NCBI GenBank assembly: GCA_903841915.1
Contig: CAIMKO010000182.1
Location: forward strand, 1-30,640
DNA: 30,640 nucleotides
Origin: an uncultured Chitinophagaceae bacterium
GTDB taxonomy: Bacteria; Bacteroidota; Bacteroidia; Chitinophagales; Chitinophagaceae
Direction: 5' to 3'
The notes below the pieces were generated by a model, which saw only the letters and a list, made by a program, of their open reading frames with translations, was not told the DNA's origin and made no database searches. This document shows, piece after piece, positions 3,868 to 18,979 of this stretch. Both the position numbers and the translations under genes were made by a program. Every line of letters begins with the position of its first letter. Position 1 is the stretch's first letter.

Positions 3868-4842
3868 TTACCATCCCAAGATCCACGCAAACATTAACGG
3901 CGCAACGATCGTTGCATCACTTTCTACAATGAATTTTGGTGTATGGATATCTAATTTACCCCAGGTAATTTTTTCGTTTGGAACAGCCCCACTATAAGAA
4001 CCGTAAGAGGTTGTGCTGTCACTAATTTGGCAGAAATAACTCCAGAAAGGAACGTCATGCCATTCCAGATCCTGATACATCATCGGCACCACACAAATTG
4101 GGAAATCGCCTGCAATACCGCCACCGATCTGGAAGAATCCAACACCTTTGCCGCCACTGTTGGCACGATACCATTCGGTTAAATAGATCATGTATTCAAT
4201 ACCGCTTTTTACGGTACTTGCTTTTAATTCGCCCTTGATCACATAACTCGCAAAAATATTTCCGGTAGTACTGTCTTCCCATCCCGGAACGATGATCGGA
4301 ATATTTTTTTCGGCAGCCGCTAATATCCAGCTGTCTTTCGGATCAATTTCATAATACTGTTCCAGTTCTTTGCTCAGCACCACTTTGTATAAAAACTCAT
4401 GTGGCAAATATCTTTCACCTTTTGCTTCGGCATCTTTCCACTGTTTCACCAAATGTTTTTGCAGGCGGCGGAACGCTTCTTCCTCGGGAATACAGGTATC
4501 GGTAACACGATTGTAATGATGCTCTAAGAGGTCCCATTCGTCCTGTGGGGTCAGATCACGATAATGAGGGACCCTTTTATAATGAGAATGAGCAACAAGG
4601 TTCATCACATCTTCTTCCAGGTTGGCACCGGTACAGCTGATAATATCCACTTTCCCCTGACGGATCATTTCAGCAAAAGAGATCCCTAATTCGGCGGTGC
4701 TCATGGCACCGGCCAGTGTGACCATCATTTTGCCGCCTTCCAGCAAATGTGTTTCATAGCCTTTTGCCGCATCCATCAGGGCTGCAGCGTTGAAATGGCG
4801 GTAATGGTGTTCGATAAACTGAGAAACGGGTCCTTTACTCAT
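3868..4842 (-). CDS. Deoxyhypusine synthase-like protein (probable homospermidine synthase)
   Basis: DHS motifs TLAGAMST, ISCTGANLEED, PGWEDSTTG, IGGGIAGDF, SYGSYSGAVPNEKITWGK (catalytic Lys of the WGK motif retained) and SDATIVAPL. Confidence 0.92.
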   Translation of the reverse strand: MSKGPVSQFIEHHYRHFNAAALMDAAKGYETHLLEGGKMMVTLAGAMSTAELGISFAEMIRQGKVDIISCTGANLEEDVMNLVAHSHYKRVPHYRDLTPQDEWDLLEHHYNRVTDTCIPEEEAFRRLQKHLVKQWKDAEAKGERYLPHEFLYKVVLSKELEQYYEIDPKDSWILAAAEKNIPIIVPGWEDSTTGNIFASYVIKGELKASTVKSGIEYMIYLTEWYRANSGGKGVGFFQIGGGIAGDFPICVVPMMYQDLEWHDVPFWSYFCQISDSTTSYGSYSGAVPNEKITWGKLDIHTPKFIVESDATIVAPLMFAWILGW

Positions 4843-4860
4843 AACTTGCTTTTAGTGGCG

Positions 4861-4868
4861 CAAAAGTA
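4861..4868 (-). promoter_or_regulatory. Bacteroidota -7 promoter box for the DHS-like gene
   Basis: TACTTTTG on the minus strand fits TAnnTTTG, followed by CGCC, 18 nt before the ATG. Confidence 0.6.
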
Positions 4869-4950
4869 ATTTTTTTGCGTCGGTTTTACGAGAAATAAAG
4901 AGTTAAGCTTTTATCAGTTGGAAATTATAGTTTTAATTTGCAAACCCGCA

Positions 4951-5880
4951 ATGAAGAAACTCATCAGCATATTGATCCCCGTTTTTAATGAAGAGGGGAA
5001 TGTACCTGCCATTACGGAAGCGATTCGTACAGTTTTTGAAAATATCCATTTCGATTATGAGATCGTTTTTGTGAATGACGGCAGCGCCGATAATAGTTTG
5101 GCCATTATTAAAGAGATTGCAATTACACAAAACAATATCTTCTATATTTCATTTTCAAGAAATTTTGGTAAGGACAATGCATTATTGGCCGGATTTAAAT
5201 ACTGTAAGGGCGATGCGATCATAACGATCGATGCCGACATGCAGCATCCACCCGAAATGATCCCCGGTATGCTGCAATTATGGGAAGAAGGAAATGATGT
5301 GGTGTATACCTATCGTTCCGACAGAAATCAACACGCCAGTAATTTTAATCAGTTCACCTCAAGAATGTTTTATAAAGTGATCAATAATCTTTCTGATGTT
5401 GATCTGGAAGATGGTATTGCCGATTATCGCCTATTGGATAAATCTGTGGTGGGTGTATTTAATAATTTACATGAAGACAGGCCTTTTTTTCGCGGTTTGA
5501 TAAAATGGGTTGGATTTCAGCAAAAAGGCATTCCTTACATGCCCAAACCAAGAGTTACCGGCGAAACTAAATACAGCGCTAAAGCATTGGTCAGATTGGC
5601 ATTGCAGGGGATTACATCTTTCAGTGTAAAACCACTGACCATTGCGATCTATCTGGGACTGACCTTTTCGTTATTATCTACTTTATATATTCCTTATGTA
5701 TTGATCAGTTTGTATAAAGGATATGCTATATCGGGATGGACGTCGATCATCGTTACCATTGCTTTTTTTGGCGGTTTGCAATTAATGATATTGGGAATAC
5801 TGGGAATTTATCTGGGAAAATTATTCATGCAAAGCAAACAGCGGCCACACTTCATCATTAAAGAAACCAATCTTTACTAA
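4951..5880 (+). CDS. GT2 polyprenol-phosphate glycosyltransferase (GtrB/ArnC/CsbB type)
   Basis: SILIPVFNEEGNV, VNDGSADNS, FSRNFGKDNAL, ITIDADMQHPP, DYRLLD, RPFFRGLIKWVGF and two C-terminal TM helices. Start moved to ATG 4951. Confidence 0.92.
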   Translation: MKKLISILIPVFNEEGNVPAITEAIRTVFENIHFDYEIVFVNDGSADNSLAIIKEIAITQNNIFYISFSRNFGKDNALLAGFKYCKGDAIITIDADMQHPPEMIPGMLQLWEEGNDVVYTYRSDRNQHASNFNQFTSRMFYKVINNLSDVDLEDGIADYRLLDKSVVGVFNNLHEDRPFFRGLIKWVGFQQKGIPYMPKPRVTGETKYSAKALVRLALQGITSFSVKPLTIAIYLGLTFSLLSTLYIPYVLISLYKGYAISGWTSIIVTIAFFGGLQLMILGILGIYLGKLFMQSKQRPHFIIKETNLY

Positions 5881-5901
5881 ACTTAGGTGCGTACCATTAA
5901 T

Positions 5902-7110
5902 ATGAGCGAAAACAAAACAAAGAAATGGTTTAGTTCAGGTGCTTTCTTGCACGATAAAACCTTAGCGCTTGTTTTATGGTTTGGTTTAGCTTTCATTGCT
6001 GTGCTGCTTGATTTTCTTCATGGGATGACCAATAACTACATCATCTTTAAATATGTGTACATACATACCCTGCAACACACAAATCTTTATTTGGAATATC
6101 CGCAGCAGTATGTTGATGTAAATTTATATGGTCCAGTTTTCAGTATGGTGATCGCACCATTTACATTATTGCCCGATTGGTTGGGAATTATTTTCTGGGG
6201 AATGTTTAATACGGCTATTTTATATGTAGCGATCCGAAAATTACCCATTGAAGCAAAATGGCAATACGCGATCCTTATTTTAAGTGCACACGAAATGATG
6301 AATGCCGCATCCTGGCTGCAAAGTAACCCCCTGATCGTTGCCTGTATCATTCTTGGATTTGTATTCATTCATGAAGGGAAAAATATCTGGGCATTATTTT
6401 TTATTATGCTGGCCACATTTGTTAAGCTCTATGGCATTGTTGGATTTGCTTTCTTCTTTTTTAGCAAGGATAAATTGAATTTTATTAAATGGGCCTTTAT
6501 TTGGGGTGCCGTATTTTTTGTCTTGCCCATGCTGCTGGCACCACCATCCTTTGTGATGCAATCATATCATGACTGGTATGCTGCACTTACTTTTAAAGCC
6601 GCAAAAAATGTCAGGCTGGATATTCACAATGATTATCAGGATATTTCTGTGATGGGAATGATCAGAAGAATATTCAATTACCCCGAGTTTAAAAATATCT
6701 ATATCACCATTCCTGCAATGCTCATATTCGGATTGCAATATTTGCGTTATAACTATTTTTCTGATCTACGATTCCGACTCTATCTTTTGTGCTCTGTGCT
6801 GATCACAACAGTGATCTTTACTACCAGTGCAGAATCCCCAACTTATATCATTGCATTTCCTGCGGTGTGTATCTGGTATGTATTGCAGCAGCACACTAAA
6901 ATGATCAATGCTGTATTTATTTTTGCGCTTTTACTAACGAGTTTTTCTTATTCAGATATTTTTACGCCGTATGTCCGTGACCATATTATCAGGCCTTATT
7001 CCTTAAAAGCATTGCCTTGTTTTGTGTTGTGGATATTGATCGCCTGGCAGATCTTTTCAAAACAATTTTTGTCTGTTGACCGTACATTAATCTTAGAGAA
7101 AGCAGCATAA
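5902..7110 (+). CDS. GT87/DUF2029 family polytopic membrane glycosyltransferase (GT-C, lipid-linked donor)
   Basis: About 10 hydrophobic segments. NNYIIFK, NLY...YGPVFSMVIAPF, QSNPLI, FVKLYG and AESPTYIIA patterns are typical of Bacteroidota DUF2029/GT87 proteins. Start moved to ATG 5902. Confidence 0.82.
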   Translation: MSENKTKKWFSSGAFLHDKTLALVLWFGLAFIAVLLDFLHGMTNNYIIFKYVYIHTLQHTNLYLEYPQQYVDVNLYGPVFSMVIAPFTLLPDWLGIIFWGMFNTAILYVAIRKLPIEAKWQYAILILSAHEMMNAASWLQSNPLIVACIILGFVFIHEGKNIWALFFIMLATFVKLYGIVGFAFFFFSKDKLNFIKWAFIWGAVFFVLPMLLAPPSFVMQSYHDWYAALTFKAAKNVRLDIHNDYQDISVMGMIRRIFNYPEFKNIYITIPAMLIFGLQYLRYNYFSDLRFRLYLLCSVLITTVIFTTSAESPTYIIAFPAVCIWYVLQQHTKMINAVFIFALLLTSFSYSDIFTPYVRDHIIRPYSLKALPCFVLWILIAWQIFSKQFLSVDRTLILEKAA

Positions 7111-7119
7111 ATTCATTGC

Positions 7120-7911
7120 ATGAAGCAAGCCGAGCGATTTATCATATTGAGTTTTGATGTGGAGGAATTTGACCTTCCTCTGGAATATGGAGAAAATATT
7201 TCTGCAGAGGAACAATTCATGATTGGTAATGCCGGAACTGAAAGCATTGCTACAATACTGGACCAACACGAAATAAACTGCAGCCTTTTTACCACCGCTA
7301 ATTATGCGATGCATTTTCCGCAACAGATAAAAGCATTGGCAAAGCAGCATGAAATCGCTTCGCATACATTTTATCATTCATCGTTTCAAAACGAAGATCT
7401 CTTAGCATCAAAATTAAAGCTCGAAGAAATTTCAGGAACAACGGTATCCGGTTTGCGAATGCCAAGGATGCGGAAAATTGAAATGGAAGAAGTGAAAAAG
7501 GCAGGATATATATACGATTCGTCCATTAACCCAACTTTTTTGCCAGGGAGATATAACAATCTTCATCTGCCCCGAACATTATATAAAGAAGAGGATATTT
7601 TTCGCTTGCCCACGTCGGTCACTCCCCATTTACGCATTCCTTTATTCTGGCTGGCATTTAAGAACCTTCCATACTTTGTTTTTAAACAAATGGCTATTCA
7701 AACTTTGCGGAATGATGGCTGCCTCAGTCTGTATTTCCATCCATGGGAATTTATTGACATTAATCAATATAAAATACCCGGCTACACCAAAAGACTATGC
7801 GGCATCGCTCTTCAGCAAAGAATGCATCAGTTAATTAAAGATCTGAAAAAAGAAGGCCAATTCATTACAGCCCAAACCTATATCAATGAGAAAAGCCCTC
7901 TTATACAATAA
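7120..7911 (+). CDS. Polysaccharide deacetylase family protein (CE4/NodB-like, DUF3473-like), cytoplasmic
   Basis: LSFDVEEFD, SLFTT, HEIASHTFYH, GLRMPR, YDSS and YFHPWEF motifs. No signal peptide. Confidence 0.88.
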   Translation: MKQAERFIILSFDVEEFDLPLEYGENISAEEQFMIGNAGTESIATILDQHEINCSLFTTANYAMHFPQQIKALAKQHEIASHTFYHSSFQNEDLLASKLKLEEISGTTVSGLRMPRMRKIEMEEVKKAGYIYDSSINPTFLPGRYNNLHLPRTLYKEEDIFRLPTSVTPHLRIPLFWLAFKNLPYFVFKQMAIQTLRNDGCLSLYFHPWEFIDINQYKIPGYTKRLCGIALQQRMHQLIKDLKKEGQFITAQTYINEKSPLIQ

Positions 7912-8751: not shown

Positions 8752-9021
8752 GTGAATATTCTCTTTAAAGCACTGAATGATACAACCAGAAGAAGCATTT
8801 TGGAAATGCTGAAGGAAAAAGATATGACAGCCGGCGATATTGCTGATCAATTCAATATCAGCAAACCCAGTATCTCACATCATTTGGACCTGTTGAAACA
8901 GGCGGGGTTGGTGGTTGCTGTGAAAGAGGGGCAATTCATTTTATATTCGATCAATACAACCGTCATGGATGAAATGTTGAAATGGATGATGCAATTTTCA
9001 CCCAAAACAAAAAAGAAATAA
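8752..9021 (+). CDS. sdpR: ArsR-family autorepressor, SdpR type
   Basis: FKALND.TRR.IL.ML, MTAGDIADQF.ISKPSISHHLD.LKQAGLV and GQFI.YSINTT. It lies directly upstream of an sdpI homologue. GTG start. Confidence 0.88.
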   Translation: MNILFKALNDTTRRSILEMLKEKDMTAGDIADQFNISKPSISHHLDLLKQAGLVVAVKEGQFILYSINTTVMDEMLKWMMQFSPKTKKK

Positions 9022-9023
9022 AC

Positions 9024-9680
9024 ATGAAAAAACCAAACCTAACAGATTTTGCAGCCATTATAATTTGGCTTATTCCTATTTTATATTTGATATATATATT
9101 TCCCTCTCTACCCAAATTAGTTCCACTGAAATTTGATGCAGAAGGCAATCCTATAAGATTTGGTACACAGAATGAATTTTTGTGGACGCAAGTGTTAATT
9201 CAAGGAATAGCAGTATTTGCATATTTACTGTTAAAATTTTTGCCAAGTATTGATCCGAAAAAAAATGCAAAATATTCTTCAGCTAGTTTTAAGAAAATTG
9301 CATTAGCTGTTATCTTTTTTGTATCAGCAATTAACATAGTAGTTATTTATGCAGTTACTAATCATACTGTAAAAATTAATTTTATTTTATTCCCCTTAAT
9401 CGGAATTCTATTTGCATTTTTGGGTAACCTGATGCACAGTATTAAACCAAACTATTTTGTTGGCATTAGAACCCCATGGACCTTAGAGGATCCAGATACA
9501 TGGAGAGCAACGCATCAATTAGGCGGGAAACTTTGGTTCTTTGGAGGAATAGCAATAACCATTGCAACATTGTTTCTTCCGGCTAAAATTGGCTTCTTCT
9601 TTTTTATAACTATTATAATTATCATTTCATTAGTTCCGGTTATTTACTCGTTCATCTATTTTAAAAATCATAAAAAGTAA
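9024..9680 (+). CDS. sdpI: SdpI-family immunity/signal-transduction membrane protein (DUF1648 + SdpI domains)
   Basis: LP..VP..FDAEGNP (DUF1648-like) and IKPNYFVGIRTPWTLEDPDTWRATHQLGGKLW (SdpI signature), with about 6 TM segments. Start moved to ATG 9024, 2 nt after the sdpR stop. Confidence 0.9.
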   Translation: MKKPNLTDFAAIIIWLIPILYLIYIFPSLPKLVPLKFDAEGNPIRFGTQNEFLWTQVLIQGIAVFAYLLLKFLPSIDPKKNAKYSSASFKKIALAVIFFVSAINIVVIYAVTNHTVKINFILFPLIGILFAFLGNLMHSIKPNYFVGIRTPWTLEDPDTWRATHQLGGKLWFFGGIAITIATLFLPAKIGFFFFITIIIIISLVPVIYSFIYFKNHKK

Positions 9681-9681
9681 T

Positions 9682-10626
9682 ATGAAAAAATCATTTGCAT
9701 TTATTATAGCCACATTCATCTTTTCTTCTCTTACAGCGCAAAACGTTTCAACAGAAAAAACTGTTTCTATCAATATCCGAGGCGTTGCGATTGAAGGAAC
9801 TTTATTAGCAAGTTCCAACAGTCAAAAATTGGTCATCATCATTGCCGGTTCCGGACCAACCGATCGAAATGGCAATAGCACCGCAGGAATTAATTGCAAT
9901 ACCTACAAAATGCTGGCTGATGAGTTGGCGAAAAATAATATCGCCAGTTTTCGGTACGATAAAAGAGCCATTGCTAAAAGTGCGATCAAAAATTTTAAGG
10001 AAAGCGATCTGACTTTTGACGATTATGTTAATGACGCCATTGCCATTTACCAATACATGAAAGATTCGTCAGGGTTCATGAATATATATTTTGCCGGACA
10101 CAGCGAAGGTTCTTTATTAGGAATGCTTGCATCAGCGCAAACAAAAACGAAAGGCTATATTTCTATTGCAGGTGCGGGAAGACCTATTGATGTAATTCTG
10201 ACAGAGCAAATCAGCAAACAGTCCCCTATCATTGGAAAGCAAATAGATTCGATGCTGCAAGTATTAAAAACAAAAAACAAATTAGATACAGTTCCGCCAT
10301 ATTTATTGTCTCTTTTAAGACCAAGCATTCAGCCGTACATGGTTTCCTGGATGAAATATGATCCGACCCTTGAAATTAAAAAATTAAAATGCCCCATACT
10401 GATCGTTCAAGGGACTTGTGATATTCAGGTTAAAGTTAATGACGCAGAATATTTATCTAAGGCCAATACAAAAGCAAAACTAGATATCATTGAAGGAATG
10501 ACACATGTATTGAAAGATGCAGAAGCCAATTGCAACGACAAAAACCTTAAGACTTATCACGATCCTTCTTTACCGTTAAATGCACAGTTTGTAAAAGATA
10601 TCATTAGTTTTATACAAACGAATTAG
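9682..10626 (+). CDS. Secreted alpha/beta hydrolase (serine aminopeptidase S33-like)
   Basis: Signal peptide. IIAGSGPTDRNGN, RYDKRA, nucleophile GHSEG, acid QGTCDIQV and His in GMTHVLK. Starts 1 nt after the sdpI stop. Confidence 0.88.
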   Translation: MKKSFAFIIATFIFSSLTAQNVSTEKTVSINIRGVAIEGTLLASSNSQKLVIIIAGSGPTDRNGNSTAGINCNTYKMLADELAKNNIASFRYDKRAIAKSAIKNFKESDLTFDDYVNDAIAIYQYMKDSSGFMNIYFAGHSEGSLLGMLASAQTKTKGYISIAGAGRPIDVILTEQISKQSPIIGKQIDSMLQVLKTKNKLDTVPPYLLSLLRPSIQPYMVSWMKYDPTLEIKKLKCPILIVQGTCDIQVKVNDAEYLSKANTKAKLDIIEGMTHVLKDAEANCNDKNLKTYHDPSLPLNAQFVKDIISFIQTN

Positions 10627-14306: not shown

Positions 14307-15533
14307 TTATTCATACCGTAGCGCTTCAATTGGATCAAGCCTTGAAGCCTTTTGTGCAGGATAATATCCAAAAAATACACCGGTAACGGCACACACAACG
14401 AAAGATAAAATAACGGATGATTGTGTAACAAGTGTTGGCCAGGCTAGAAAGGTCGTTACAAGCTTTGCAGCGCTTATGCCCAGTATCACACCAATGATCC
14501 CTCCGGTGATACTGATCAGAGTTGCTTCTGTTAAGAACTGTAAAAGTATATCAACACCTCTGGCACCGATGGCCATTCGCAAACCAATTTCTTTGGTGCG
14601 TTCTGTTACAGAAACATACATGATGTTCATGATGCCGATACCACCCACCAATAATGAGATCGCTGCAATGGCTGTTAATAACACGGTCAATAATTGACTG
14701 GTAGAGCTCATGGTGCTGATCAGCTCTGCTTGTGTACGCACAGTAAAATCATCCTCCTCTGTATATTTTAATTTATGATTGGCACGAAGAATAACTTTTA
14801 CTTCTTTGGTAGCAGTATCAGAACTTTTTTCATCAGTGGCAGCTGCATAAATATTTTGTAACCAGGTTATGGCCATGATTCTTTTCTGTACGGTTGTATA
14901 AGGGGCCAGTATCATATCATCCTGATCCTGACCAAAAGTATTCTCACCTTTTTTGTCTAATACTCCAATTACTTTAAATGGGATCTTATTGAACCGGATG
15001 GTCTTTCCGATCGGGTCTTCTCCATTCGTAAAAATATTATTGATCACTGTTTGACCCAATAAACAAACTTTTGCAGCACTGGCAACATCATCATCCGTGA
15101 ATGGAATTCCGGAAGCTATTTTCCAATCGCGGATACTGAGATAAGAAGGACTAACACCCTGCAAAGAGGTTGGCCAGTTCAATGCTGCATTGATGGCTTG
15201 CCCATTCGTAGAAACGGCAGGAGACACATCAGTAATAAACTCAGCTTGATTTTGTATGGCGAATGCATCTTTTATGGTCAGCGTTTTTAATCCACTCGAA
15301 CCAATTCTTGCACCACCGCCAACAGTAACATTACTGAATGGTCTGATGGTGATCATATTTGAACCCATGCTTGATAACTGGCTGCGGATACTTTGTTTTG
15401 AACCTTCTCCAATCGACACCATTGTTATTACTGCAGCAACCCCAATAATGATACCTAGCATCGTAAGGGATGTTCTGATCTTATTGCGTAACAAAGCTTT
15501 CCAGGCAAGATGTAAAAGATTAAAAACATTCAT
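14307..15533 (-). CDS. macB: MacB-type ABC transporter permease (MacB periplasmic core + FtsX domain)
   Basis: R.SLTMLGIIIGVAAVI, SLLVGGIGIMNIMYVSVTERTKEIGLRMAIGA and GYYPAQKASRLDPIEALRYE. Confidence 0.95.
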   Translation of the reverse strand: MNVFNLLHLAWKALLRNKIRTSLTMLGIIIGVAAVITMVSIGEGSKQSIRSQLSSMGSNMITIRPFSNVTVGGGARIGSSGLKTLTIKDAFAIQNQAEFITDVSPAVSTNGQAINAALNWPTSLQGVSPSYLSIRDWKIASGIPFTDDDVASAAKVCLLGQTVINNIFTNGEDPIGKTIRFNKIPFKVIGVLDKKGENTFGQDQDDMILAPYTTVQKRIMAITWLQNIYAAATDEKSSDTATKEVKVILRANHKLKYTEEDDFTVRTQAELISTMSSTSQLLTVLLTAIAAISLLVGGIGIMNIMYVSVTERTKEIGLRMAIGARGVDILLQFLTEATLISITGGIIGVILGISAAKLVTTFLAWPTLVTQSSVILSFVVCAVTGVFFGYYPAQKASRLDPIEALRYE

Positions 15534-16300
15534 ACTGTAGCTTTTATAGGTTCATCATCTTTTTCTATTGGAAGAGCTGCTAATGCTTCTTTCGCTGATT
15601 TTACATTTTCATTTTTAAGGTCTTTGATAACTCTTCCGTCTTTTAATGTAACAGTGCGACTGCTGAAAACTGCAATATCAGGTTCATGTGTTACAAATAC
15701 AATTGTTTTGCCTTGCTTACTGTTCAATTCTTGCAAGAGCGACATGATCTCATAAGATGTTCGGGTGTCTAGATTTCCTGTTGCTTCATCAGCCAATATC
15801 ATCACAGGTTCATTTACCAAAGCCCTTGCAATGGCTACACGTTGTTGCTGTCCGCCGGATAATTGATTGGGCATATGATTCATTCGTTCTGCCAAACCCA
15901 CTGCTTCCAATGCATGGATCGCTTTTTCCTTTCTTTCTTTAGTGGGTACATCAGCATTATATAAAAGAGGTAATTCAACATTTTCCAATGCGGAAGTTCT
16001 TGCCAATAAATTATAGGATTGAAATACAAAACCAATTTTTCTATTTCTCAGTTTAGCCAATTCATTTCGGGAAAGACTCTTTACGTCAGCACCATCCAAT
16101 AGATATTTTCCTTCAGTGGGTTGATCTAAACATCCTAAAATATTCAATAAGGTTGTTTTGCCTGAGCCGCTGCTTCCCATAATGGTCACAAATTCTCCTG
16201 CATCAACAGAAAATGAAACCCCCTTTAAAGCTCTTACAGTTTCGCTTCCCATTTTAAATTCCCGTTTCAATTCATTGATATCAAGTATCTTATTTGCCAT
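15530..16300 (-). CDS. ABC transporter ATP-binding protein (MacB/LolD type)
   Basis: Walker [10 protein letters not shown], signature [20 protein letters not shown] and VTHE. The stop overlaps the permease ATG (ATGA). Confidence 0.96.
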
Positions 16301-16339
16301 ACATTTCTTTAATCCGATTTTGATCCGAATTTTATTTTA

Positions 16340-17611
16340 CTAATGCGGCCCACCTCCGCCTTGATTTGGTCTTCTGTTATTTCCACCTCTTGTTGGCATG
16401 AACGGACTTTTCGTTACGGCTGCTGCATCCTTCTTCAAGACTTTTTTGTATCCGGTTATTACAGCATCACCTTCCTGTAAACCCGACACGAGTTGCACTA
16501 CTGTTTTATCATCTAATCCTGTTGTTACTTTTCTGCTGATAATTGTTAGACTGTCTTTCTTGATCCAAACCATCCCCTTATTTATTTTAATACCAATGCT
16601 GTCAATACTCCCTGGTTGTTTGGTTTTGTTTTGCCTCTTCCCGATTTTTTTTAGGGGTGCCTCAATATTAGTGAGATGATATTTCGCGATCAATAAAGAA
16701 TCAGGCGTAAAATTCAATGCTGCTGCAGGAATCAATAATGTATTATTTACTTCGATGGTGTAGATGGTAATGTTGGCGGTCATGCCCGGTTTTAATTTCA
16801 TATCCGCATTCGGCGCATCGATGATCGTGATATAAGTAACTACATTGGATGATACAGAAGCACGCAACCGGATCTCCTTTACTGTCCCTGAAAAAGTATC
16901 AGTAGGGAAAGCATCTACCGAAAAGATCACACGCTGTTGCTTTTTTACATTGCCGATATCAGCTTCATCAACTGAAGCCTGTACCTGCATTTTCGTAAGA
17001 TCTTTTGCAATGCTGAAAAGTGTTGGTGTACTGAGGCTGGCCGCTACTGTCTGCCCTTCACTCACGCTTCGTGAAAGAACTGTCCCATCAATAGGCGAAT
17101 AGATATCAGTAAAACTTAGGTTCTTTTTGGCTGTATTTAACTGTGCAGTGATACTGTTTACATTATCCTTTCCTGCATTATACTGATAAACGGCTGTTTC
17201 AAGATCGGCTTTGCTGATAGCACCAACTGTAAATAGTTTATTCTGTCGTTCATAATTACTTTTTTGATACACCACATTCGCTTTTGCCTGCTGTAGTATA
17301 GCCGTATATTGCTGTACCTGTGCATCCATTAGTGATTTATCAAGTTGCGCAAGTAATTGCCCTTTCTTTACAGGCGAATTAAAATCAACATACACATTTT
17401 TTATCGTCCCGGATATTTGCGTTCCTACCGCTACAGTATCAACCGGTTGCAATGTACCTGTTGCGGTAATTGAATTGCTGACCGTGCCATATTGTACTTT
17501 CTCTGTTTCCAATATGATCACTTCTTCTGCTTTTCTGAACACAAAAAACCATAGGGCAATAGCGGCTATTACCGCTGCAATGATGATGATGATCCATGTT
17601 GACTTTTTCAT
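16340..17611 (-). CDS. macA: MacA-type periplasmic adaptor (membrane fusion protein)
   Basis: N-terminal TM, ATGTLQP...VGTQISG, YSPIDGTV, DEADIG and LKPGMTAN, plus a Gly/Arg-rich tail. Confidence 0.93.
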   Translation of the reverse strand: MKKSTWIIIIIAAVIAAIALWFFVFRKAEEVIILETEKVQYGTVSNSITATGTLQPVDTVAVGTQISGTIKNVYVDFNSPVKKGQLLAQLDKSLMDAQVQQYTAILQQAKANVVYQKSNYERQNKLFTVGAISKADLETAVYQYNAGKDNVNSITAQLNTAKKNLSFTDIYSPIDGTVLSRSVSEGQTVAASLSTPTLFSIAKDLTKMQVQASVDEADIGNVKKQQRVIFSVDAFPTDTFSGTVKEIRLRASVSSNVVTYITIIDAPNADMKLKPGMTANITIYTIEVNNTLLIPAAALNFTPDSLLIAKYHLTNIEAPLKKIGKRQNKTKQPGSIDSIGIKINKGMVWIKKDSLTIISRKVTTGLDDKTVVQLVSGLQEGDAVITGYKKVLKKDAAAVTKSPFMPTRGGNNRRPNQGGGGPH

Positions 17612-17641
17612 TAACCCTAAAATTTAGTACTGATAAATAGT

Positions 17642-18979
17642 TTAAAAACTAACAGGAATACCCATATAGAATTGATAGATCTTATTGTACAAGGCAGCAG
17701 TGTATTTAGCCTGCGTAAAAGCCTGTAAAGCCTGCACATAGGCATTCTTCTGTTGAAGCAACTCCACGGCATTCACAGCACCGAGTTTTAATTGTTCATT
17801 CGTTATACGGTATATTTCTTCACTTGTTTTAAACTGGATCTCTGCAGCAGTATATTGAGCCTGCGCGTTAATTAAGTTGATATAAGTTTGCTCAACTTCC
17901 TGATTAAGGATCGTCTTAGTATCATACAATGAAAGTTTAGATTGTTGAAGAAAGATCCTTGATCTATTGATACTGGTCCTGTTTACTCTCCTGCTGTAAA
18001 TGGGAATACCCATTGTAACTGAAAGTGATTGATAAAAATTAGTATTCATCTGCGGCAGATATACGCCGGCTTCATTATCCGAATAGCCTGTTGATAGCCC
18101 GCCGTTCAGGCTTATGATGGGTTTTACACTTGATTGTGTTTTTTCTAGTTCTACCTCTGATATTTTTATTTGTACTTCTTTATTTTTTATTTCAGGTCTT
18201 GTTTGCTGCGCTTCATTTTGTGCATTCGATAAAGATGCTAATGCATAATGCACAGGGATACTATCCGGTGCGCTTGTTTGAAAATCGAATGAAGTGGGCA
18301 ACAAAAGATATTGTTTTAAAATAACCGTATTCAATTTAAAATTATTGGTCGCATTGATAATATTGTATTGATCAACGGCTACCTGTGATTGCAGTTGTAA
18401 GAAATCTTTCCTTGCAATACTGCCGGCATCAAAACGTTGTTGTCCCTGTTGCATCTGGCCTTGTGAAGTAGCCAATACTGCTTCAAAAGAGATCATGATC
18501 TCTTTGGCAAGAAGGATATTGAAAAAAGCTTGTGTGATACTTAATGTAAGACTGTTCTCGGTTTCTTTAACATTGAGGTTAGCAGATTGAACGGATAGAT
18601 CTTTTGATCGGATATCATTTTTTAAATAACCGGCATTATAAAGCGTCATGGAAGAAGTCAACCCGTAACTGCTGGAGAAATGCGCTTCGTCTTGCATTCC
18701 ACCTGTAGAACTGTTTATTTTATTACTGTTGATCACCGATTGAGAAACCGATCCGGTTAAATTAGGCAAAACACCTGCTTTTGATTGCAAGAGATCTTCT
18801 TCCGTTGAACGAATACTTAGTCGCAGTGTTGCCAACGAAATATTTTTCAGCTTTGCATAAGCGATACAATCCTGTAAACGCCATTGTTTAGGCAGGCTGC
18901 TCAACAATGTATCCTGTGCATTCAATGATGAAAACATTGTAAATAAAACAACAGCCGTTGACACAAAAGTTCTATACAT
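17642..18979 (-). CDS. tolC: TolC-family outer-membrane efflux protein
   Basis: Signal peptide, W.LQDCI.YA, LPNLTGS, two OEP-like repeats (TQAFFNILLA; RPEIK; QF..SE...RI..EQ.KLGA). First gene of the tripartite pump operon. Confidence 0.92.
   Translation of the reverse strand: MYRTFVSTAVVLFTMFSSLNAQDTLLSSLPKQWRLQDCIAYAKLKNISLATLRLSIRSTEEDLLQSKAGVLPNLTGSVSQSVINSNKINSSTGGMQDEAHFSSSYGLTSSMTLYNAGYLKNDIRSKDLSVQSANLNVKETENSLTLSITQAFFNILLAKEIMISFEAVLATSQGQMQQGQQRFDAGSIARKDFLQLQSQVAVDQYNIINATNNFKLNTVILKQYLLLPTSFDFQTSAPDSIPVHYALASLSNAQNEAQQTRPEIKNKEVQIKISEVELEKTQSSVKPIISLNGGLSTGYSDNEAGVYLPQMNTNFYQSLSVTMGIPIYSRRVNRTSINRSRIFLQQSKLSLYDTKTILNQEVEQTYINLINAQAQYTAAEIQFKTSEEIYRITNEQLKLGAVNAVELLQQKNAYVQALQAFTQAKYTAALYNKIYQFYMGIPVSF

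Follow-up and report, generated by a model that had tools for sequence, protein, structure and literature searches.

A GT2, GT87 and NodB-type deacetylase operon in Bacteroidota, a candidate lipid-carrier module for glycosylation with a deacetylated sugar

The window analyzed here, a stretch of 30,640 nt, contains three co-oriented genes separated by gaps of only 21 nt (5881-5901) and 9 nt (7111-7119), a layout already given in a preliminary description of this DNA and reproduced by our ORF coordinates. The family calls made in that description also hold, as the products match PF00535, PF09594, and PF01522 plus DUF3473, respectively. The features of the locus are:

4843..4950, no strand: divergent intergenic region between a deoxyhypusine-synthase-like gene (-) and the GT2 gene (+); presumed operon promoter region
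4951..5880, + strand: GT2, polyprenyl-phosphate glycosyltransferase of GtrB/ArnC architecture (PF00535, PDB alignments, TM segments)
5902..7110, + strand: GT87-family GT-C membrane glycosyltransferase (PF09594, AF2 fold, PimE profile alignment)
7120..7911, + strand: NodB-fold (CE4-like) deacetylase with a DUF3473-type C-terminal part (PF01522, DUF3473, AF2 fold, conserved residues)

The GT2 frame opens with an ATG at 4951 and encodes 309 aa, with a longer TTG start at 4918 as a possible alternative. The GT87 frame starts with the ATG at 5902 (the longest ORF would begin at a GTG at 5887) and encodes 402 aa, exactly the length of its orthologue P0121, which it covers at 100%, and the deacetylase has 263 aa. 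The region from 4843 to 4950 presumably carries the promoter of the three-gene operon. It holds no match to the sigma-70 consensus, which is not descriptive of Bacteroidota promoters, and a scan with this ill-suited consensus found fewer promoter-like sites than in shuffled sequences, together with a number of terminator-like sites about equal to that of the shuffles. The preliminary description had pointed out that the window lacks a GtrA or ArnEF flippase; indeed, no GtrA or ArnE/F-type gene was found within the 30,640 nt, yet a single-copy GtrA gene lies on another contig of the same genome.

The GT2 protein scored 116.9 bits against PF00535 in a Pfam scan and carries two TM segments (229-247 and 266-284) C-terminal to its GT-A domain, the architecture of polyprenyl-phosphate glycosyltransferases, whose hallmarks also include juxtamembrane helices and basic residues that take the UndP phosphate. 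All its scores on the curated NCBIfam equivalogs fell under the respective cut-offs, including those on PgfS (300 bits) and ArnC (162 bits). Its best solved relative is GtrB sll0501 (E 3.8e-70, residues 5-305 aligned), the PDB alignment with ArnC having an E of 2.5e-42. GtrB, which uses UDP-Glc, is thus the nearer of the two, with 240 bits as compared with 149 bits for ArnC. UDP-Glc is the donor of GtrB, UDP-Ara4FN that of ArnC and UDP-HexNAc that of GacI, FlmF2 and LgmA. Residues D94-A-D96-M-Q98-H99 align with 94-DADLQD-99 of GtrB, the DxD metal/nucleotide motif of the GT-A domain (PMC12690121), and the protein retains D158 and, in common with GtrB/ArnC, the basic R122, R125 and R201, the roles of the aligned residues being those described in PMC12690121 and PMC12698845. 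At the positions of the GtrB UndP ligands K132 and R197 the alignment places N133 and P198. The papers on the structures of ArnC and GtrB offered no donor-specificity determinants that could be applied to the GT2; its predicted product is undecaprenyl-P-HexNAc. Since the genome encodes only one other GtrB-like GT2 (30% identity to that of the window) and its three ArnT-like PMT_2 GT-C genes are all on other contigs, the window GT2 is the natural partner of the adjoining GT87.

The GT87 protein scored 88.7 bits against PF09594, well above the cut-off of 25, and is all-membrane, with about 11-12 helices and without a large periplasmic domain. The top solved fold for its AF2 model (pLDDT 93.2, pTM 0.93) is that of PimE (9dm7/9dm5; TM 0.60-0.65, E 2.8e-6), a GT-C fold. 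To our knowledge, every GT87 enzyme characterised so far is a mannosyltransferase from an actinobacterium. In the profile alignment Y76, Q140 and K175, which are kept in 36/36, 35/36 and 36/36 homologues, fall on Y92, Q163 and K195 of PimE, the donor-phosphate residues that are essential for that enzyme (PMC12041525). Given this retention, the window GT87 is likely catalytic and not a scaffold. Both the whole-length and the N-terminal profile alignments reach PimE from residue 68 on, and the catalytic Asp58, at the JM1 tip with Y62, lies outside; candidates for its counterpart are D72 in the first outer loop and N44, each conserved in 35/36 homologues, and the invariant N45. PimE, a polyprenyl-P-mannose:Ac1PIM4 mannosyltransferase, shares its donor-phosphate residues and compact all-membrane body with the window protein and acts on a lipid-anchored acceptor, a type that we also predict for the latter. 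The two differ in sequence (17-18% identity), in host, here a Gram-negative Bacteroidota, and in the predicted donor, an amino sugar instead of mannose. The operon partners, a GtrB-type GT2 and a deacetylase, argue for a donor other than polyprenyl-P-mannose. The predicted role of the GT87 is to move the sugar from its carrier to an acceptor on the outer side of the inner membrane.

These features bear on the possibility that the operon directly synthesizes an amino-glycolipid, the GT2 adding the sugar to a membrane lipid that is already the end product, with the deacetylase exposing its amine and the GT87 acting as a translocase or scaffold. A comparable set of synthase, cytoplasmic deacetylase and membrane protein has been proven for P. 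aeruginosa and put forward for C. difficile (PMC12713373, PMC10128005), where the three-gene operons GpgSDF (GlcN-PG) and HexSDF (HNHDRG) give a lipid a cationic GlcN head group by deacetylating its GlcNAc. However, these systems have neither a polyprenyl carrier nor a GT-C enzyme, and rely on GT4- or MGDG-synthase-type enzymes, COG3233 proteins and MprF/UPF0104-type flippases, whereas our GT2 has the architecture of a polyprenyl-phosphate glycosyltransferase and our GT87 keeps the PimE donor-phosphate equivalents. We therefore regard direct synthesis as highly improbable.

The third protein matched PF01522 (32.1 bits) and DUF3473 (27.8 bits). It had been described as cytoplasmic and devoid of a signal, and hydropathy agrees. 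The Kyte-Doolittle mean over 19 residues peaks at 0.96, leaving no hydrophobic or TM segment, and beta-1, the strand that carries the catalytic Asp, begins already at residue 7-13; the protein therefore has no signal peptide. The CE4/NodB motif is complete, with D13/E15 at the position of the Asp base, H82-T-F-Y-H86 as the predicted metal site, R113, and H207 as the predicted distal acid; D13, E15, H82, H86, R113, H207 and W209 are present in 62-71 of 71 homologues, the range without W209 being 62-70. Thus, catalytic motifs are intact in the three proteins of the operon, those of the GT87 being its donor-phosphate residues. The AF2 model of the deacetylase (pLDDT 97.5) matches HP0310 PgdA (TM 0.70), 3rxz and ArnD 8t0j (TM 0.60).

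We considered whether this enzyme belongs to a known type. As a single sequence it gave no match to 8t0j at E<=1, and with a profile ArnD appeared at rank 37 (E 2.8e-4, 23 bits), behind many other CE4 enzymes, so that the likeness to ArnD is one of fold only (TM about 0.6). NaxD and LgmC are YdjC-family deacetylases; a Pfam scan at E<=0.01 returned PF01522 and PF11959 alone, and no YdjC domain. The nearest curated family is TIGR03006, the VimE/XrtA-type deacetylases of the Wbp/Vim linking-sugar pathway, which likewise combine NodB and DUF3473 without a signal peptide and are proposed to take the C-2 N-acetyl off an activated sugar. On this model the window protein reached 68.4 bits where the cut-off is 276.2, and the clades are split with 100/100 support; an XrtA-type paralogue of the same genome (contig C497, 223 bits) lies beside an ATP-grasp gene and a GT4 gene. 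Judged by its sequence, the window deacetylase belongs to a NodB/DUF3473 clade of its own, apart from the XrtA/VimE-type enzymes, and its predicted substrate is a polyprenyl-P-HexNAc at the inner membrane face.

Another acyl group, an N-formyl as with ArnD or an O-acetyl, might instead be removed from a rarer carrier-linked sugar, Ara4FN-like or diamino, in which case the donor would not be a simple HexN. Among reviewed proteins, ArnD entries make up 27 of the 30 structural matches, starting at rank 3 (TM 0.55-0.64), the proposed VimE-type substrate is a di-N-acetyl uronic sugar, and the outlying relatives of the deacetylase include methyltransferase fusions, which hint at more sugar editing. 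On the other hand, ArnA/ArnB-like or Wbp-like sugar-nucleotide genes are conserved at none of the trio loci, and the weak ArnD sequence match and the fully supported split from the XrtA/VimE-type group weigh in the same direction, making this alternative unlikely. Removal of an N-acetyl from a carrier-linked HexNAc is the reading that we retain.

Next, we searched 401 Bacteroidota genomes for the deacetylase and defined as close those matches with E<=2e-60. A close deacetylase was present in 13/401 genomes, and in 12 of the 13 it lies beside a GT87 plus a GT2, the DUF2029, GT2 and deacetylase synteny that the preliminary description had suggested looking for. The distribution is patchy, with this subfamily in about 3% of the sampled genomes; at E<=1e-10 it occurs only in families f1, f3, f6, f7 and f9, apart from weak unlinked matches. 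The three genes adjoin one another in four Bacteroidota families (f1, f6, f7, f9), with two gene orders and with surroundings that are otherwise unrelated, which indicates a linkage beyond chance. The order is GT87-GT2-deacetylase in 11 fetched loci of the sampled genomes and GT2-GT87-deacetylase in the clade of the window. No further neighbor is conserved beside the three genes across these loci, and the flanks vary by family (histidine biosynthesis, subtilase, TetR, transposase, PI-PLC, sensor kinase and others). Read for clues to the acceptor, they yielded only a GT4 gene directly downstream of the deacetylase in family f7 and a CptA-like gene at L034. All 12 trio genomes have a GtrA gene, but the genomes of f1, f6, f7 and f9 have one without exception, with or without the trio, so its co-occurrence is uninformative.

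Some arrangements depart from the trio. In the genome of locus L002 the locus is broken and the deacetylase is retained on a different contig (75% identity), a survival through rearrangement that favors the module. By contrast, genome G283 has a trio-type deacetylase with methyltransferase and B12-radical-SAM genes in place of the usual partners, and G383 has a GT87 (45% identical) and no deacetylase; in view of these two genomes, parts of the trio can act in other settings.

Natural fusions also connect the deacetylase with carrier-lipid functions. Relatives of the deacetylase are fused to a TM-less GT2 (P0248, P0358), and the lack of a TM segment in these proteins places both domains in the cytoplasm. 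Others are fused to GtrA, with four TM helices (four in P0285, three above threshold in P0262). In the deacetylase tree the GtrA fusions are nested within the trio clade, and the GT2 fusions P0248/P0264 are sister to it, with a joint clade support of 98/91. In a variant operon (L034-L036) a GtrA-deacetylase fusion gene is followed in order by those for a CptA-like pEtN transferase (202 bits), a GT2 and a GT87, which connects the module with a flippase-type protein and with a kind of enzyme that modifies LPS. P0351 was inspected for a GT87-like N-terminal part and discarded, as its N-terminal 395 residues are not GT87-like and its polysaccharide context is different. Taken together, the four-family synteny and the GT2 and GtrA fusions bear out the functional linkage of the three genes that had been proposed from the window.

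This linkage also bears on a simpler scenario of plain Gtr type, in which the GT2 would form Und-P-glucose or another neutral hexose for transfer by the GT87, and the deacetylase, connected by regulation only, would serve another purpose; its substrate could then be a different cytoplasmic one or the precursor of the acceptor. The UDP-Glc dependence of GtrB, the best solved relative of the GT2, is consistent with this scenario, as are the GT87 paralogues with neither GT2 nor deacetylase beside them (L020-L027, L005, L009) and the deacetylase-free genome G383. Nevertheless, those stand-alone GT87s are distant paralogues (31-36% identity) or belong to a genome that also has the full trio (G402), and neither the tight synteny across four families in two orders nor the fusions within or beside the trio clade would be expected from it. 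We consider a neutral-hexose module with an unrelated deacetylase improbable.

Instead, the trio is probably a self-contained lipid-carrier module for periplasmic-face glycosylation in which the carrier-linked sugar is edited by deacetylation. A sequence of making, deacylating, flipping and transferring the lipid-linked sugar is the best reading of the family calls, the cytoplasmic deacetylase, the gene linkage and the GT87 donor site. In the first step the GtrB-type GT2 would load an N-acetylated hexosamine onto undecaprenyl phosphate at the cytoplasmic face, UDP-GlcNAc being the simplest donor as the cassette carries no sugar-nucleotide genes. The soluble NodB/DUF3473 metallo-deacetylase would then strip the N-acetyl group from the cytoplasmic head group, the predicted change being from HexNAc to HexN, to give Und-P-HexN; ArnD (PMC12690121) and GpgD (PMC12713373) are established examples of enzymes that deacylate lipid-linked amino sugars in the cytoplasm. 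A GtrA-type protein encoded elsewhere may flip this lipid, a step proposed on account of the one GtrA gene in the genome and the GtrA-deacetylase fusions in relatives. Finally, the GT87 would hand the amino sugar over to a molecule anchored in the inner membrane's outer leaflet; LPS, at its lipid A or inner core, or a different glycolipid is the likeliest acceptor. LPS as the acceptor is only hinted at, by the CptA-like pEtN transferase of the variant operon. Through this transfer the envelope would gain a free amine and with it a positive charge, and a role in cationic-peptide resistance may follow. The more specific proposal, a GT87 that uses Und-P-glucosamine or -galactosamine to place a free-amine sugar on Bacteroidota lipid A or LPS inner core, is tentative and we would sooner doubt it than assume it.

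The proposed logic is that of the Arn pathway (ArnC/ArnD/ArnE-F/ArnT) of Enterobacteria, Pseudomonas and Burkholderia, which adds L-Ara4N to lipid A: a polyprenyl-phosphate GT2 makes an Und-P-linked N-acylated amino sugar, a NodB-fold enzyme deacylates it in the cytoplasm, and the lipid is flipped for transfer by a GT-C enzyme. The deacetylase model aligns over its full length with ArnD, and the GT2 aligns with ArnC as described above. In contrast, the trio transferase is a compact PimE-like GT87 rather than the GT83 ArnT, and the trio has no ArnA/ArnB sugar-nucleotide genes and no ArnE/F. The nearest systems in predicted chemistry (Und-P-HexNAc to Und-P-HexN to GT-C transfer) are Francisella FlmF2/NaxD/FlmK and Bordetella LgmA/LgmC/LgmB, which place GalN or GlcN on lipid A phosphates. 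These employ YdjC-family deacetylases and ArnT-like GT83 transferases, where the trio has a NodB PF01522 plus DUF3473 deacetylase and a GT87. With a GT87 in place of a GT83, no flippase in the window, and the PMT_2 and GtrA genes on other contigs, the locus is not an Arn, Flm or Lgm system. Thus, the analogy with these pathways drawn in the preliminary description is well supported as far as the logic goes, by synteny, fusions and motifs, but orthology of the deacetylase to ArnD, NaxD or LgmC is rejected, given the profile E of 2.8e-4 and the lack of YdjC. The arabinogalactan GalN pathway of mycobacteria and corynebacteria (PpgS, Rv3632, Rv3779) also resembles the trio: a synthase makes polyprenyl-P-GalNAc, a small GtrA-like protein assists, the carrier sugar must be deacetylated, by an enzyme still to be identified, and a GT-C enzyme performs the transfer (PMC9671496). 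It belongs to another phylum and serves another acceptor, and the window GT2 scored only 37 bits on the NCBIfam PpgS model.

The cassette had been called a candidate undescribed pathway, and our search of the searchable literature (DUF2029/GT87 in Bacteroidota, Und-P-GlcN/GalN and Lgm) returned no account of it. Cytoplasmic deacylation of amino sugars is known from Arn, Flm and Lgm; what appears to be new is the proposed assembly of a GT87 and a NodB/DUF3473 enzyme for it. All the characterised cationic amino-sugar routes on Gram-negative envelopes that we know of employ ArnT-type GT83 transferases and ArnD- or YdjC-type deacylases. If our reading is correct, a PimE-like transferase and a NodB/DUF3473 deacetylase would constitute a third independently assembled route for LPS cationic amino sugars beside Arn and Flm/Lgm, and GT87 would gain a phylum and a class of donor that are new to it. 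A new family of deacetylases for lipid-linked sugars would be added as well, the kind of enzyme missing in the mycobacterial GalN pathway (PMC9671496). Such a route might account for unassigned free amino sugars in the LPS cores of Bacteroidota, for instance allosamine in P. gingivalis, and would offer a handle on envelope charge and on the interactions with antimicrobial peptides and phages in abundant soil and freshwater Bacteroidota.

The preliminary description had reported three co-oriented genes with gaps of 21 nt (GT2/GT87) and 9 nt (GT87/deacetylase), a layout that the ORF coordinates confirmed, and its assignment of the products to the GT2, GT87 and deacetylase families was upheld by Pfam, NCBIfam and PDB searches.

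Genes of the cassette, from ORF coordinates and family searches
4951-5880, co-oriented with the GT87 and deacetylase genes: GT2
5902-7110, co-oriented with the GT2 and deacetylase genes: GT87
7120-7911, co-oriented with the GT2 and GT87 genes: deacetylase

Because a divergent deoxyhypusine-synthase-like gene lies on one side and a convergent 150-aa ORF, with a signal-peptide-like N-terminus, on the other, the trio forms a discrete unit. As had also been stated, no flippase gene accompanies them: neither a GtrA- nor an SMR-type gene turned up elsewhere in the window. The window belongs to a Chitinophagaceae genome that resembles a MAG; its closest public relative, locus L001, is 88% identical across the GT87; there (L001:5983-7209) the GT87 reading frame lies in two ORFs, 5983-6588 and 6628-7209, a split that may reflect a frameshift, a stop or a MAG assembly error.

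Several neighbours of the cassette were recorded in their own right. The adjoining deoxyhypusine-synthase/homospermidine-synthase-like gene (3868-4842, minus strand; PF01916, 142 bits) also stands beside the cassette in L001, L002, L008 and L012 with 92-99% identity, and is much better conserved than the cassette itself. An SdpI-family membrane protein followed by an alpha/beta hydrolase (8982-10626, plus strand) is kept beside the cassette in L001, L012 and L046. Farther away lies a four-gene MacB-type ABC efflux system (14307-18979, minus strand), composed of an FtsX/MacB permease, an ABC ATPase, an HlyD-family adaptor and an outer-membrane OEP protein.

The catalytic motifs that could be aligned are intact in all three enzymes. 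Judged by its sequence, the GT2 is a polyprenyl-phosphate glycosyltransferase, alignable over its full length with GtrB of Synechocystis (E 3.8e-70) and with ArnC (E 2.5e-42). Its DADxQ motif sits at the same numbering as in GtrB, R122, R125, D158 and R201 are kept, with roles drawn from the GtrB/ArnC structures (PMC12690121, PMC12698845), and two C-terminal transmembrane helices are present; K132 and R197 of GtrB are not conserved in the alignment of the two proteins. In Terrimonas sp. NS-102 (L004:5267-5980) the GT2 ahead of the GT87-deacetylase pair has 237 aa, matches PF00535 at 33 bits only and gave no tblastn match to the window GT2 at E<=1e-5, while other trio loci carry a GT2 of ~310 aa; the loading enzyme therefore seems to have been replaced there.

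The GT87 model (AlphaFold, pLDDT 93) is an all-membrane protein whose best solved match, and the only GT87 structure found, is PimE (TM 0.60-0.65). In a profile of 36 homologues, Y76, Q140 and K175 align with PimE Y92, Q163 and K195 and are conserved in 35-36 of the 36. These PimE residues are essential, and K195 binds the polyprenyl donor at its phosphate (PMC12041525). The window GT87 has a polyprenyl-phosphate donor site. The catalytic D58 of PimE falls upstream of the alignable region, and D72 and the conserved N44-N45 pair are candidates for the catalytic base.

The deacetylase model (pLDDT 97.5) opens straight into strand beta-1 and lacks any hydrophobic segment; D13/E15, H82-x3-H86, R113 and H207 are kept. 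By fold it lies with the cytoplasmic NodB subgroup, matching H. pylori PgdA (TM 0.70), M. smegmatis 3rxz, ArnD (TM ~0.6) and PuuE. In sequence ArnD is only remotely related (E 2.8e-4 for a profile of 71 sequences), and the nearest curated family is the XrtA/VimE-type deacetylase TIGR03006, on which the protein scores just 68 bits where the cut-off is 276.

The preliminary description had named synteny across Bacteroidota as a check on its reading, and we followed the genes through 401 evenly drawn genomes of the phylum. At E<=1e-10, GT87 matches were found in 21 genomes and deacetylase matches in 16; a close deacetylase (E<=2e-60) was present in 13. In 12 of these 13 the deacetylase lay within ~1 kb of a GT87, together with a GT2 46-59% identical to that of the window, and the genomes concerned span four families (f1, f6, f7 and f9). 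The order is GT87-GT2-deacetylase in 11 fetched loci of the sampled genomes, whereas the window and its closest relative have GT2-GT87-deacetylase. When all neighbouring ORFs were clustered, the trio were the only genes common to the loci of the different families, the flanks being unrelated housekeeping or mobile genes. The linkage of the three genes is under selection. The window's subfamily is patchy, occurring in ~3% of the sampled genomes, and remoter GT87 paralogues (31-36% identity) stand alone, without trio partners.

Apparent exceptions to the linkage mostly resolve. In the L002 genome a deacetylase of 75% identity lies on a separate contig beside the window's right-hand neighbours, which indicates rearrangement and not loss; the L005 genome carries a complete trio at another site plus an additional GT87. 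The true exceptions are genomes G383, with a GT87 only, and G283. In the latter (L040:5587-8927) a trio-type deacetylase stands with a SAM methyltransferase beside B12-binding radical-SAM enzymes, with neither a GT87 nor a GT2, and the outlying, methyltransferase-fused relative P0296 (L039:3219-6074) has the same kind of surroundings; here the deacetylase family serves another, as yet unexplained purpose. In one genus of family f7 (L018:10792-11886; also L017 and L019) the last part of the deacetylase gene is overlapped by a GT4 gene, which may be a fourth cassette gene particular to that lineage.

When 1.8 billion representative proteins were searched exhaustively, 1232 deacetylase relatives were returned, among them fusions to a GT2 domain (P0248, P0264, P0358), to a GtrA domain (P0262, P0285) and to a methyltransferase (P0296, P0309). 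Neither P0248 nor P0358 has a transmembrane segment, so the deacetylase shares the compartment of the nucleotide-sugar-using GT2; its location is the cytoplasm. In the GtrA fusions the deacetylase follows four transmembrane helices (four in P0285; three above threshold in P0262). A maximum-likelihood tree nests these fusions within the trio-linked deacetylase clade and places the P0248/P0264 GT2 fusions as its sister (enclosing clade support 98/91). XrtA/VimE-like enzymes fall outside (100/100), including a second NodB+DUF3473 deacetylase of the window's own genome (contig C497; L044:447-3717), which scores 223 bits on TIGR03006. It adjoins an ATP-grasp ligase and a GT4, and together these genes look like a sugar-editing cassette separate from the trio, one that first deacetylates and afterwards attaches an amino acid.

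The operon holding P0262 was seen on three independent metagenome contigs, their taxon being unknown (L034:2036-7054, L035 and L036), and reads GtrA-deacetylase, CptA-like phosphoethanolamine transferase (202 bits), GT2 and a GT87 of 25% identity. It provides the flippase-type component absent from the window, and its CptA-like gene is the one clue from gene context that LPS may be the target. The window's own genome has one GtrA gene, unlinked to the trio; since all genomes of the families that bear the trio have GtrA, its co-occurrence with the trio is uninformative.

The best supported reading, to which we give a moderately favourable probability, has four steps: load, deacetylate, flip and transfer. 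The GT2 would make Und-P-HexNAc, which the deacetylase would turn into Und-P-HexN on the cytoplasmic face; a GtrA-type protein would probably flip it, and the GT87 would hand the amino sugar on to an outer-leaflet acceptor of the inner membrane. Requirement for a deacetylase, together with the lack of sugar-nucleotide genes in the cassette, points to an N-acetyl-hexosamine, with UDP-GlcNAc as the simplest donor. Because the GT87 body is compact and PimE-like, without a periplasmic domain, a lipid-anchored acceptor is favoured, which may be lipid A, the inner core or another glycolipid.

The Arn/Flm/Lgm-like logic put forward previously, a carrier-linked amino sugar deacylated in the cytoplasm, is thus well supported by synteny, motifs and fusions, and is shared with ArnC/ArnD/ArnT, with Flm/NaxD of Francisella and Lgm of Bordetella, and with the PpgS/Rv3779 pathway for GalN in mycobacteria, for which a deacetylase is still to be identified (PMC9671496). 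Taken as a whole the earlier interpretation is supported in part, its amino sugar, acceptor and resistance phenotype standing as predictions. The parts differ, however: the transferase is a GT87 where Arn/Flm/Lgm-type systems use GT83, and the deacetylase belongs to neither the ArnD nor the YdjC family. GpgSDF and HexSDF likewise deacetylate lipid-linked GlcNAc in the cytoplasm, but without a carrier or a GT-C enzyme. Full-text literature searches turned up just two papers that name DUF2029, and no treatment of a Bacteroidota GT87 or of a GT2-GT87-deacetylase cassette. In P. gingivalis the LPS inner core carries allosamine, an unusual sugar for which most enzymes have yet to be assigned (PMC8003790, PMC7468200), and we consider this sugar a lead to a possible connection with the cassette.
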